The translations under genes were made by a program, and so were the position numbers. Source: Eledone cirrhosa (lineage: Eukaryota). From it: DNA of 64,000 nucleotides. The notes under the pieces are model-generated. The model worked only from the letters and a program-made list of their open reading frames with translations. It made no database searches and had not been told where the DNA came from. The DNA lies in assembly GCA_964016885.1 (NCBI GenBank), contig OZ024740.1, forward strand, positions 388,368,001-388,432,000, in the 5' to 3' direction. The number at the start of each line of letters is the position of its first letter. Within the stretch, counting starts at the first letter, position 1. Shown piece after piece: positions 48,381-53,661 of this stretch.

Positions 48381-48869
48381 TGTGTGTATATATATATATA
48401 TATATACGTAATTGTATGTGTGTGTGTATTTCTGTGGTTGTGTTTTTGTGTGTGTGTGTGTATGTATATATATGTATATATATGTGTGTGTGTATATATA
48501 TATATATATATATATATATATATATATATATATAAGTTGAAAAAAATGAAAACGAAATTTCATTTCTCACTCTTAGTATGGCACTTACTTAAATGTAAGT
48601 ATGTACGTATACGTACATACATATATGTATACAGACGTACAGTAGCATGCATATATATATATATATATATATATATATGTATATATATATATACATATAT
48701 ATACACATATGCATACAGGTACACATACATATATGCACGCATCAGTTTAGCCGACGTTTATTATAACGCCTGCTTTGTTCGTTTGTTTGTCAACAAATCG
48801 AACAGCCTGAATTTATGCCATACGGTGTTAAGGCAACCACGTCACCTTTTTGTTCAACACTGACACAGG

Positions 48870-48914
48870 AACGATGTACTAGTTTCAAGCTTGTTAGCTA
48901 TCATCAGCACCGTT
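48870..48914 (-). ncRNA. Type I hammerhead, unit 1
   Basis: Minus strand: aacggtg-CTGATGA-t agct aaca agct t-GAA-actagt-A-catcgtt. Confidence 0.85.
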
Positions 48915-49382
48915 TACCCATCTGCCAGATAGTTGAACGTTCGAAAGTATATACTTTCCTTATGAAAATTAACGGCTGAGCAGCCTAATTTGCATATTGA
49001 GTGAGTTAAATCGGTCAGGCATACCGAAAACGATAAGTTGAAAAAAATGAAAACGAAATTTCATTTCTCACTCTTAGTATGGCACTTACTTAAGTGTAAG
49101 TATGTATGTATACGTACATACATATATGTATACAGACGTACAGTAGCATGCATATATATATATATATATATATATATATATATATATATATATATATATA
49201 TACACACATATATATACACATATACATACAGGTACACATACATATATGCACGCATCAGTTTAGCCGACGTTTATTATAACGCCTGCTTTGTTCGTTTGTT
49301 TGTCAACAAATCGAACAGCCTGAATTTATGCCATACGGTGTTAAGGCAACAACGTCACCTTTTTGTTCAACACTGACACAGG

Positions 49383-49427
49383 AACGATGTACTAGTTTCA
49401 AGCTTGTTAGCTATCATCAGCACCGTT
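49383..49427 (-). ncRNA. Type I hammerhead, unit 2
   Basis: Same motif as unit 1. Confidence 0.85.
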
Positions 49428-49911
49428 TACCCATCTGCCAGATAGTTGAACGTTCGAAAGTATATACTTTCCTTATGAAAATTAACGGCTGAGCAGCCTA
49501 ATTTGCATATTGAGTGAGTTAAATCGGTCAAGCATACCGAAAACGATAAGTTGAAAAAAATGAAAACGAAATTTCATTTCTCACTCTTAGTATGGCACTT
49601 ACTTAAATGTAAGTATGTATGTATACGTACATACATATATGTATACAGACGTACAGTAGCATGCATATATATATATATATATATATATATATATATATAT
49701 ATATATATATATATATATATATATATATATATATACATATATATACATATATGCATACAGGTACACACACATATATGCACGCATCAGTTTAGCCGACGTT
49801 TATTATAACGCCTGCTTTGTTCGTTTGTTTGTCAACAAATCGAACAGCCTGAATTTATGCCATACGGTGTTAAGGCAACCACGTCACCTTTTTGTTCAAC
49901 ACTGACACAGG

Positions 49912-49956
49912 AACGGTGTACTAGTTTCAAGCTTGTTAGCTATCATCAGCACCGTT
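49912..49956 (-). ncRNA. Type I hammerhead, unit 3
   Basis: Same motif; stem I fully Watson-Crick (aacggtg/caccgtt). Confidence 0.85.
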
Positions 49957-50482
49957 TACCCATCTGCCAGATAGTTGAACGTTCGAAAGTATATACTTTC
50001 CTTATGAAAATTAACGGCTGAGCAGCCTAATTTGCATATTGAGTGAGTTAAATCGGTCAGGCATACCGAAAACGATAAGTTGAAAAAAATGAAAACGAAA
50101 TTTCATTTCTCACTCTTAGTATGGAACTTACTTAAATGTAAGTATGTATGTATACGTACATACATATATGTATACAGACGTACAGTAGCATGCATATATA
50201 TATATATATATATATATATATATATATATATATATATATATATATATATATATATATATATATATATATATATATATATATATATATATATATATATATA
50301 TACACACATATATATACACATATACTTACAGGTACACATACATATATGCACGCATCAGTTTAGCCGAAGTTTATTATAACGACTGCTTTGTTCGTTTGTT
50401 TGTCAACAAATCGAACAGCCTGAATTTATGCCATACGGTGTTAAGGCAACAACGTCACCTTTTTGTTCAACACTGACACAGG

Positions 50483-50527
50483 AACGATGTACTAGTTTCA
50501 AGCTTGTTAGCTATCATCAGCACCGTT
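50483..50527 (-). ncRNA. Type I hammerhead, unit 4
   Basis: Same motif as unit 1. Confidence 0.85.
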
Positions 50528-50995
50528 TACCCATCTGCCAGATAGTTGAACGTTCGAAAGTATATACTTTCCTTATGAAAATTAACGGCTGAGCAGCCTA
50601 ATTTGCATATTGAGTGAGTTAAATCGGTCAAGCATACCGAAAACGATAAGTTGAAAAAAATGAAAACGAAATTTCATTTCTCACTCTTAGTATGGCACTT
50701 ACTTAAATGTAAGTATGTATGTATACGTACATACATATATGTATACAGACGTACAGTAGCATGCATATATATATATATATATATATATATATATATATAT
50801 ATATATATATATATATATACATATATATACATATATGCATACAGGTACACACACATATATGCACGCATCAGTTTAGCCGACGTTTATTATAACGCCTGCT
50901 TTGTTCGTTTGTTTGTCAACAAATCGAACAGCCTGAATTTATGCCATACGGTGTTAAGGCAACCACGTCACCTTTTTGTTCAACACTGACACAGG

Positions 50996-51040
50996 AACGG
51001 TGTACTAGTTTCAAGCTTGTTAGCTATCATCAGCACCGTT
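50996..51040 (-). ncRNA. Type I hammerhead, unit 5
   Basis: Same motif as unit 3. Confidence 0.85.
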
Positions 51041-51558
51041 TACCCATCTGCCAGATAGTTGAACGTTCGAAAGTATATACTTTCCTTATGAAAATTAACG
51101 GCTGAGCAGCCTAATTTGCATATTGAGTGAGTTAAATCGGTCAGGCATACCGAAAACGATAAGTTGAAAAAAATGAAAACGAAATTTCATTTCTCACTCT
51201 TAGAATGGCACTTACTTAAATGTAAGTATGTATGTATACGTACATACATATATGTATACAGACGTACAGTAGCATGCATATATATATATATATATATATA
51301 TATATATATATATATATATATATATATATATATATATATATATATATATATATATATATATATATATATATATATATATATACATATATATAGACACATG
51401 CATACAGGTACACATACATATATGCACGCATCAGTTTAGCCGACGTTTACTATAACGCCTGCTTTGTTCGTTTGTTTGTCAACAAATCGAACAGCCTGAA
51501 TTTATGCCATACGGTGTTAAGGCAACCACGTCACCTTTTTGTTCAACACTGACACAGG

Positions 51559-51603
51559 AACGATGTACTAGTTTCAAGCTTGTTAACTATCATCAGCACC
51601 GTT
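51559..51603 (-). ncRNA. Type I hammerhead, unit 6
   Basis: Same motif; a stem II C-G pair is changed to U-G. Confidence 0.8.
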
Positions 51604-52087
51604 TACCCATCTGCCAGATAGTTGAACGTTCGAAAGTATATACTTTCCTTATGAAAATTAACGGCTGAGCAGCCTAATTTGCATATTGAGTGAGTTAAAT
51701 CGGTCAGGCATACCGAAAACGATAAGTTGAAAAAAATGAAAACGAAATTTCATTTCTCACTCTTAGTATGGAACTTACTTAAATGCAAGTATGTATGTAT
51801 ACGTACATACATATATGTATACAGACGTACAGTAGCATGCATATATATATATATATATATATATATATATATATATATATATATATATATATATATATAT
51901 ATATATATATACATATATATACACATATGCATACAGGTACACATACATATATGCACGCATCAGTTTAGCCGACGTTTATTATAACGCCTGCTTTGTTCGT
52001 TTGTTTGTCAACAAATCGAACAGCCTGAATTTATGCCATACGGTGTTAAGGCAACCACGTCACCTTTTTGTTCAACACTGACACAGG

Positions 52088-52128
52088 AACGGTGTACTAG
52101 TTTCAAGCTTGTTAGCTATCATCAGCAC
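52088..52128 (-). ncRNA. Type I hammerhead, unit 7 (stem I shortened by a deletion)
   Basis: Core intact; deletion immediately after atcagcac. Confidence 0.65.
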
Positions 52129-52601
52129 GTATATACTTTCCTTATGAAAATTAACGGCTGAGCAGCATAAATTCAGGCTGTTCGATTTGTTGACAAACAA
52201 ACGAACAAAGCATGCGTTATAATAAACGTCGGCTAAACTGATGCGTGCATATATGTATGTATACCTGTATGCATATGTGTATATATATGTATATATATAT
52301 ATATATATATATATATATATATATATATATATATATATATATATATATATATATATATATATATGCATGCTACTGTACGTCTGTATACATATATGTATGT
52401 ACGTATACATACATACTTACATTTAAGTAAGTGCCATATTAAGAGTGAGAAATGAAATTTCGTTTTCATTTTTTTCAACTTAACGTTTTCGGTATGTCTG
52501 ACCGATTTAACTCACTCAATATGCAAATTAGGCTGCTCAGCCGTTAATTTTCATAAGGAAAGTATATACTTTCGAACGTTCAACTATCTGGCAGATGGGT
52601 A

Positions 52602-52646
52602 AACGGTGCTGATGATAGCTAACAAGCTTGAAACTAGTACATCGTT
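52602..52646 (+). ncRNA. Type I hammerhead, inverted unit
   Basis: aacggtg-CTGATGA-tagctaacaagctt-GAAA-ctagt-A-catcgtt on the + strand. Confidence 0.88.
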
Positions 52647-53661
52647 CCTGTGTCAGTGTTGAACAAAAAGGTGACGTGGTTGCCTTAACACCGTATGGCA
52701 TAAATTCAGTCTGTTCGATTTGTTGACAAACAAATCAGGCGTTATAATAAACGTCGGCTAAACTGATGCGTGCATATATGTATGTTTACCTGTATGCATA
52801 TGTGTATATATATGTATATATATATATATATATATGCATGCTACTGTGCGTCTGTATACATATATGTATGTACGTATACATACATACTTACATATATATA
52901 TATATATATATATATATATATATATATATATATACGTGTATATATATATATATAAATATATATATATATATATATATATATATATATATATATATATATA
53001 TATATATATATATATATATATATATATATGTGTGGGTGTATGTATATGCATAATTATATACAGTGATTTAATGCTCATTTTCATTGATCTTTTGCTCCAG
53101 GAATTTGTTGAGTGCTCTAAATCTGTTATCAACATTTATACCCTTTTCTAAATATATAATTTTTTATTTATTATTTGTCGTATTCCCAACTTTTTATTTT
53201 CATTTTTATTTTTATTTTTATTTTTATTTTTATTTTTATTTTTATTTTTATTTTTATTTTTATTTTTATTTTTATATATACAATATTTTTTTATATATAC
53301 AATATTTAGGTTTTTTCATATATATAATGTTTATGTTCTTTCTCATATATATATATATATAGTTATATGTGCGTGTGTGTGTGTATGTATGTATGCATAC
53401 CTATGTGTATGTATATATGTGTGTGTAGGTATATGTGTGTATGTGTGTATGTATGTGTATATATGTGTATATATATATATATATATATATATATATATGT
53501 ATATATATATATATATATATATTAGGTATAGAATTATCCAAGATGTAGTAATCGTTAATTACTACACTGGATATAGTTGACGTACGGTAAGAGGTTACTC
53601 TACGAGTTATGGAAGAATTGTTCAAGAAACTTAGTTCCTGATACTTCAGTATTCCGGAGTG

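Follow-up and report, generated by a model that had tools for sequence, protein, structure and literature searches.

In the available part of one account, animal retrozymes are treated as non-autonomous derivatives of Penelope-like elements (PLEs), with sizes of 51-972 bp (Li et al., 2026, 10.64898/2026.07.22.740005), and both the retrozyme class and its link to PLEs are already published (Cervera and de la Pena, 2020, PMC7229834; Li et al., 2026). PLEs themselves leave a footprint of partial tandem copies, an inverted, 5'-truncated copy and a tail of 30-40 bp at one end of the insert, with (TA)n tracts as targets (PMC8557442), where the tail is described as the distance between two internal start sites of the reverse transcriptase (RT), both strands being nicked (PMC11167929). 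It has also been reported that the metazoan type I hammerhead ribozyme with a short, palindromic stem III acts as a dimer (PMC4209133). Here we describe a hammerhead-bearing tandem array at 48534-52896 of a 64,000-nucleotide stretch of Eledone cirrhosa DNA, referred to below as the window (contig OZ024740.1, positions 388,368,001 to 388,432,000 of the forward strand; assembly GCA_964016885.1). The array is one insertion of a dispersed, protein-less tandem repeat with a hammerhead motif in each unit, and this repeat is probably a non-LTR (long terminal repeat) retrozyme copied in trans by the RT and endonuclease of a PLE. This reading is built on the ribozyme motif and its covariation, the copy number, two fixed ends, the inversion, the TA flanks, the lack of an open reading frame (ORF) and the open PLE frames, from which we infer transcription, cleavage, circles and the enzyme.

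The contig that contains the window measures 443 Mb in an assembly of 3.0 Gb, and the window holds microsatellites, LINE (long interspersed nuclear element) ORFs, helicase fragments and PLE-type ORFs throughout. The array comprises seven minus-strand hammerhead cores and one plus-strand core in an inverted arm; on the minus strand, the last bases ahead of the predicted cuts are 52095, 51566, 51003, 50490, 49919, 49390 and 48877. The monomers, read from 52095 downward, are 529, 563, 513, 571, 529 and 513 nt long, in agreement with the spacings of 513, 529, 571, 513, 563 and 529 bp given for the seven cores in a preliminary description made from the sequence alone. Their lengths differ because an internal (UA)n tract varies: with TA runs removed all measure 459-463 nt. 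The units are head-to-tail, the GC content of the array is 0.30, no ORF of at least 150 amino acids lies inside it save microsatellite frames at its edge, and no LTR arrangement is present (primer-binding site and polypurine tract were given no separate search). The preliminary description counted seven hammerhead-bearing units; the seven cores stand, and at core 52125 stem I pairs at 3 of 7 positions and 36 nt (unit positions 460-495) are missing beside the inversion junction, therefore the intact minus-strand ribozymes are six, and consecutive. The inverted tail that it mentioned, and left uninterpreted, is confirmed as the arm at 52165-52896 with an intact plus-strand hammerhead at 52609, and is the most informative feature of the locus. 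Diverged relatives, also announced there, are present at 19843-20937 and 63634-64000 with 72-87% identity; in the former insert both ribozymes depart from the motif by a single point change, located either in the core or in stem III. The features of the three inserts are as follows.

48534..52173, minus strand: direct arm with six full monomers (513-571 nt) and partial units; its 3' end, which runs into (TA)n, is outer end A, at about 371-373 in unit positions counted from the cut.
52165..52896, plus strand: inverted arm, head-to-head with the direct arm, from unit position 59 to inner end B (about 311-315), then (TA)n.
48534..48593, minus strand: the "tail", a stretch of about 60 nt that separates end B from end A; it occurs at this insert end only and has two predicted hairpins.
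48870..48914, minus strand: type I hammerhead, core 48907, predicted cut after 48877.
49383..49427, minus strand: type I hammerhead, core 49420, predicted cut after 49390; stem I is predicted to run about 30 nt longer on each side, with a UA bulge.
49912..49956, minus strand: type I hammerhead, core 49949.
50483..50527, minus strand: type I hammerhead, core 50520.
50996..51040, minus strand: type I hammerhead, core 51033.
51559..51603, minus strand: type I hammerhead, core 51596, with the U-G variant of stem II.
52088..52128, minus strand: damaged hammerhead at the inversion junction, core 52125 intact, 5' strand of stem I mostly gone.
52602..52646, plus strand: intact hammerhead of the inverted arm, core 52609.
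49665..49752, minus strand: one instance of the internal (UA)n tract, which varies in length between units and, together with its flanks, has a single long hairpin as its predicted fold.
49480..49510, minus strand: block of conserved sequence that includes an octamer-like 8-mer, located 88 nt upstream of the core; it may be an internal promoter.
19843..20937, both arms: second insert, of the diverged subfamily B; the minus arm runs to end A and the plus arm to end B, both then into (TA)n.
63628..64000, minus strand: third insert, subfamily B, with end A running into (TA)n; it is 5'-truncated and extends 388 nt past the window.

The hammerhead has a stem I of 6-7 bp followed by a UA bulge and a long predicted extension, a stem II of 4 bp above a U-U mismatch at the stem base with the loop AAYA, and a stem III of 2 bp with a 2-nt loop, within the palindrome ACUAGU. 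A search of Rfam, proposed earlier for its hammerhead models, gave no match in the window at gathering score, and weak matches to Hammerhead_HH9 (18.5-20.4 bits, against a cut-off of 52) on all three cores of the tested stretch (49300-50600, 1.3 kb); matches to Rfam microRNA models at E-value level were rejected as TA-repeat artefacts. In a pairing survey that retained the 80 of 90 distinct copies with both flanks covered, stem I position 3 is G-U in 48, U-G in 24, A-U in 4, C-G in 1, G-C in 1 and unpaired in 2, and N7 is the sole variable position of CUGANGA among the distinct copies compared. The stem variants noticed between units of the array, G-U and G-C in stem I and C-G and U-G in stem II, do keep pairing. 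Across nine distinct sequences both sides have changed in 5 of the 16 pairs, 91% of cells pair and none of 500 shuffles scores as high, and the comparison supports covarying selection on the ribozyme motif in the tandem units. The monomer is also predicted to fold strongly, both as a linear molecule (z -11) and as a circle (72% paired, z -7.9 with the UA tract shortened).

A 31-nt core pattern has 24,270 exact matches in the genome, which are not chance matches because the reversed control has none, and a tail pattern has 26,015 matches, with none for its control. The first 100 core matches fall into 58 separate loci, 37 of them with a single match; the repeat is therefore a dispersed family and not a satellite block, and the earlier label "satellite" undersells it, while the retrozyme family proposed alongside that label is supported by tandem non-coding type I hammerhead units, covariation and genome-wide dispersal. 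By simple multiplication the family holds at least 24,000 units, or about 0.4% of the assembly. Its subfamilies are about 70-80 changes apart per unit, and it is judged young from arrays that are 98-99% identical. Family monomers range from 420-570 nt, and a size of about 500 nt, correctly given and called large in the preliminary description, is not exceptional within the range in the available part of Li et al. (2026). The traits of non-LTR retrozymes that can be read from DNA are all found here, namely tandem motifs, non-coding units, GC below 50%, dispersal and a self-paired monomer (predicted).

A sister family with a 466-nt monomer, no long UA tract and a GUU cut triplet (loci L156-L185; G000:C1:5738438-5751968 and others) was first spotted by a generic descriptor and then counted through an upstream block, which has 5,622 matches; its arrays reach about 30 units. 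It retains the core, loop II and the palindrome and differs widely elsewhere, and it swaps both sides of two stem I and two stem II pairs, with the U-U mismatch closed as G-C. Unlike copies selected by their core, it provides an independent check on core conservation. One locus (L069:2747-3100) is a chimera in which a sister-family unit is followed directly by the tail of the family studied, and its near-identical tail was rejected as a case of sharing between the families. Two further hammerhead families were encountered: a tandem family of about 306 nt with the U-U mismatch, an AAYA loop and an ACGCGU palindrome and no octamer (L088:5946, L043:268), and an apparently unrelated one in the window at 55193-55790, a short head-to-head insert in (TA)n with its core at +55600 and the palindrome AUGCAU; its two ends are separated by about 40 nt, and an octamer-like 8-mer lies 98 nt upstream.

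The evidence that speaks most directly to mobility is a map of insert ends, made from the first 40 core-pattern clusters on contig 1 with 101 anchored tail regions, where the end bins were fixed after the first loci had been inspected and ends upstream of the anchor were left unscored. Of these regions, 45 run on into the following unit and the other 56 are scored 3' ends, with 26 at end A, 28 at end B and 2 at other positions, so that 54 of the 56 lie at one of two positions about 60 nt apart; TA repeats adjoin 48 of the 54. Exactly one end A and one end B occur in 14 of the 15 loci with ends on both strands, the remaining locus being more than one insert, and the other loci comprise 23 with a single end and 2 without one. 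Twelve best-hit loci, which include one insert with two A ends, have 21 of 22 ends at A or B. Twenty loci chosen solely for their tail contain 22 tail matches, of which 19 terminate at end A and 3 continue past it. The sister family terminates at the two homologous points; this holds for 7 of the 8 ends listed, in a count that enters overlapping loci twice, and the remaining end belongs to a chimera. Inversion points are scattered, and ends A and B both lie away from the ribozyme cut. In the window array, which follows this map, end A is found at 48534 and end B close to 52896; the insert at 19843-20937 has the same design. The inserts fit the PLE-type design in being tandem and head-to-head inverted, 5'-truncated, with a one-sided tail and (TA)n targets, and other TA-flanked elements of this genome show the same plan. 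Pieces of a small and frequent two-ended element flanked by TA, often found beside retrozyme inserts, lie in the window at 19590-19790 and 48340-48380.

These features suggest a series of steps in which minus-strand read-through transcripts would self-cleave after GUA, probably as double hammerheads paired via the ACUAGU palindrome, and the resulting monomers of about 0.5 kb would fold their ends together and be closed into circles by a host ligase. A PLE protein would then nick both strands of a (TA)n tract and prime at two internal RNA sites, ends A and B, rather than at the ribozyme cut. With a circle or an uncut multimer as template, the enzyme would copy past the cut site and through anything from one unit to many, and the two cDNAs, joined head-to-head, would give the inverted arm and the one-sided tail.

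Autonomous PLEs are present in the genome, with Hydra-type, Neptune-like and other PLE ORFs. The Hydra-type family has many open frames of 738-745 amino acids with 98-99% identity, and a Hydra-type PLE in the window (33514-38697; ORF 34848-37071 with a frame break near 35200) carries the diagnostic motifs RWR, DKT and CxCx5C together with direct and inverted pseudo-LTRs (pLTRs). Its hammerheads lie at +38509 and -33611, its tail measures 90 nt, and it has the same two-end design. The young Hydra-type family and the Neptune-like family, a label that rests on a linker motif and not on a tree, are candidate partners; the inner end of the Neptune-like family and end A of one subfamily have only a T-rich 14-mer in common. 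A search at the DNA level with the end of the Neptune-like element gave no match, which carries little weight because frequent words are passed over in such a search. A tblastn search around 55 loci found no autonomous partner, nearby PLE ORFs being separate inserts, and the upstream block, tried as a route to such a partner, led to another non-coding family, the sister family. By eye, about 6 of 43 single-orientation clusters are head-to-head fusions with 3' pieces of other TA-targeting elements (L039, L091, L104, L109, L115 and L147), among them L039, where a retrozyme arm that runs to the outer end is joined head-to-head to a Hydra PLE arm that runs to the inner end, both in (TA)n; they are a lead only, because the partner families differ and L104 pairs two inner ends. 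Other PLE material was also seen: a large nested inverted structure at 30085-44330 combines TA/CA tracts several kb long with an ORF for a PLE C terminus at 39266-40495, and its hammerheads, at +44231 and -30127, likewise have U-U at the stem II base. In a short inverted insert of a Neptune-like PLE 3' end (window 32756-33187, L033 and L108), the 3' region is long and rich in microsatellites, and the tail measures about 40 nt.

Several observations count against mobilization by a PLE through ribozyme-made RNA. An autonomous element with unit sequence was not found by self-BLAST, by tblastn around the 55 loci or at 20 tail-only loci: the window PLEs do not match the unit outside microsatellite sequence, and an ORF is attached to 0 of the 20 tail-selected loci, a small sample beside 26,015 tail matches. 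At about 60 nt, the tail exceeds the 30-40 bp reported for PLEs. Core conservation among the 40 loci, and most surveyed copies, is a circular argument because the loci were chosen by the core pattern, and 4 of the 5 double-sided pair changes come from one sister-family sequence. ViennaRNA places the monomeric hammerhead at -21.3 kcal/mol, 7.6 kcal/mol above the predicted best fold of -28.9, with -4.8 for the ACUAGU duplex; these energies, which ignore tertiary contacts, fit a dependence of cleavage on a dimer or a protein. As far as the available text of the two reports goes, only 1 of 9 tested dimers cleaved in vitro in one (10.64898/2026.07.22.740005), and in the other cleavage needed protein and was dispensable for insertion (PMC11167929). 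The six window monomers, finally, differ by a mean of 5.1 changes, no less than from other close arrays (3-6), and the window array, judged by these differences, is not a clean copy of one circle.

That last point bears on the template, for which two accounts were weighed. In one, the element depends on a PLE all the same, and its template would be an uncut linear multimer transcript, circles having no part, with arrays growing later by unequal crossing-over and the ribozyme serving another step, e.g. freeing the RNA from host transcripts. This account touches the template step only, overlaps the best explanation and is a serious possibility, though less likely than not: the window array is heterogeneous, with 12 variable columns in a two-unit pattern (monomers 51002 and 49918 are identical outside the TA tract), and in the available text of a PLE study unprocessed RNA was the main substrate, with no reads ending at the cut (PMC11167929). 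It sits less well with L032, whose 10 monomers have 0 differences, and L040, whose 7 monomers, spread over both arms, are all 491 nt, arrays that look like repeated copies of one molecule, or with the multi-unit content of both arms in L034, L036 and L040, the sister-family array of about 30 units and the ribozyme pairs kept by covariation. The other account holds that the inserts are direct traces of a Penelope-type enzyme that reverse-transcribes, by the rolling-circle route, an RNA circle made by the ribozyme and with which it has no sequence in common. The enzyme would prime at two structure-defined sites, one per DNA strand, and would at times draw the arms from separate RNAs, as L039 may illustrate. 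This account is on balance doubtful; if true, it would reveal the way in which animal retrozymes are mobilized and the use of two templates in a single PLE integration.

Mobilization by another machinery is much less probable than copying by a PLE. The window contains PIF1-helicase fragments as well as LINE ORFs that encode RT and AP-endonuclease domains, and 5' inversions also occur in LINE insertions, so a LINE RT or a Helitron-like rolling-circle DNA mechanism was considered; it is improbable, given two alternative fixed internal ends, one per arm, the lack of poly(A) and (TA)n on both sides, as in the description of PLEs, and given that the ends lie away from the ribozyme cut, where LINE priming on cleaved RNA would be expected. 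Least probable of all, with very little to recommend it, is a DNA-level satellite with a vestigial ribozyme, spread by recombination among (TA)n tracts. TA repeats do occur inside and beside the units, yet such recombination would break in the internal TA tract, whereas the ends are two fixed unique positions, and neither the ribozyme covariation nor the 37 of 58 loci with a single core match suits it; the end map largely refutes it.

The octamer-like 8-mer of the conserved block lies 88 nt upstream of the core and 100 nt upstream in the sister family, where it is homologous and not independent; only the family at 55600 is possibly an independent case, noticed after the fact. Within 330 nt upstream of U1/U2 genes the octamer occurs in 0 of the 7 copies examined (of 20 fetched), and because these flanks lack it the idea of a newt-type small nuclear RNA (snRNA) promoter is unsupported. 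The U1/U2 genes (L116-L133) have shared upstream motifs near -250 and -60, for which no clear match was seen by eye in the unit. Elsewhere in the window, LINE and Helitron-like material occupies 59119-62736 (minus strand), 6615-9884 (plus strand) and 26275-28979 (plus strand), and includes an uninterrupted LINE frame of 1206 codons that has zinc fingers at its C terminus, LINE copies in tandem and fragments of Helitron-like helicases.

No description of this family, or of fixed tail ends in a retrozyme, turned up in searches of the literature that covered article listings and the available text of the papers cited here; the supplements of PMC8557442 and of Li et al. (2026) may list related families. 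Compared with newt satellite 2 and the Schistosoma satellite hammerheads, it has the same tandem units and palindromic short stem III, and its hammerhead is of the canonical metazoan type I form that requires a dimer (PMC4209133); newt satellite 2 is cited as having an snRNA-type promoter (second-hand, PMC2220036), whereas the 8-mer found here has no counterpart upstream of U1/U2 (0 of 7). The metazoan non-LTR retrozymes of coral, mussel and axolotl (Cervera and de la Pena, 2020, PMC7229834) likewise consist of non-coding tandem units of low GC, each with a single type I hammerhead, and have a self-paired monomer and co-existing PLEs; the axolotl HHR_Amex2 also has U-U at the stem II base and a 2-bp stem III. 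The family described here, known from DNA alone, differs in its monomer of 420-570 nt, against about 170-400, in its internal expandable (UA)n hairpin and in its 2-nt loop III, and the fixed ends, inversion and tail mapped here are not described in the available part of that account.

Among PLEs, namely those of the Hydra, Neptune and Naiad clades, the non-autonomous Chlamys MRC1 (PMC8557442) and Poseidon PAc (PMC11167929), tandem and inverted 5'-truncated inserts with a one-sided tail are found, as here; (TA)n targets are common to the three clades and this family, and a hammerhead lies in the repeat of Hydra and Poseidon PLEs, as it does in the present unit. Unlike autonomous PLEs, the family has no ORF and its tail is about 60 nt against 30-40, and while MRC1-type elements share 3' sequence with an autonomous family (PMC8557442), none was found for this one. 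Li et al. (2026) arrive at the same conclusion from co-occurrence and pLTR homology in Xenopus, where here it comes from insertion anatomy; the word "tail" occurs 0 times in the available part of their text, and a homologous pLTR was not found here. PLEs had thus been proposed as the mobilizer from co-occurrence and homology, to which this family adds a mechanical footprint that, with the published in vitro PLE assay (PMC11167929), lets enzyme identity and the circle as template be tested directly: two priming points, each located to within a few bases and each belonging to one arm, which are kept across subfamilies and a distant sister family.

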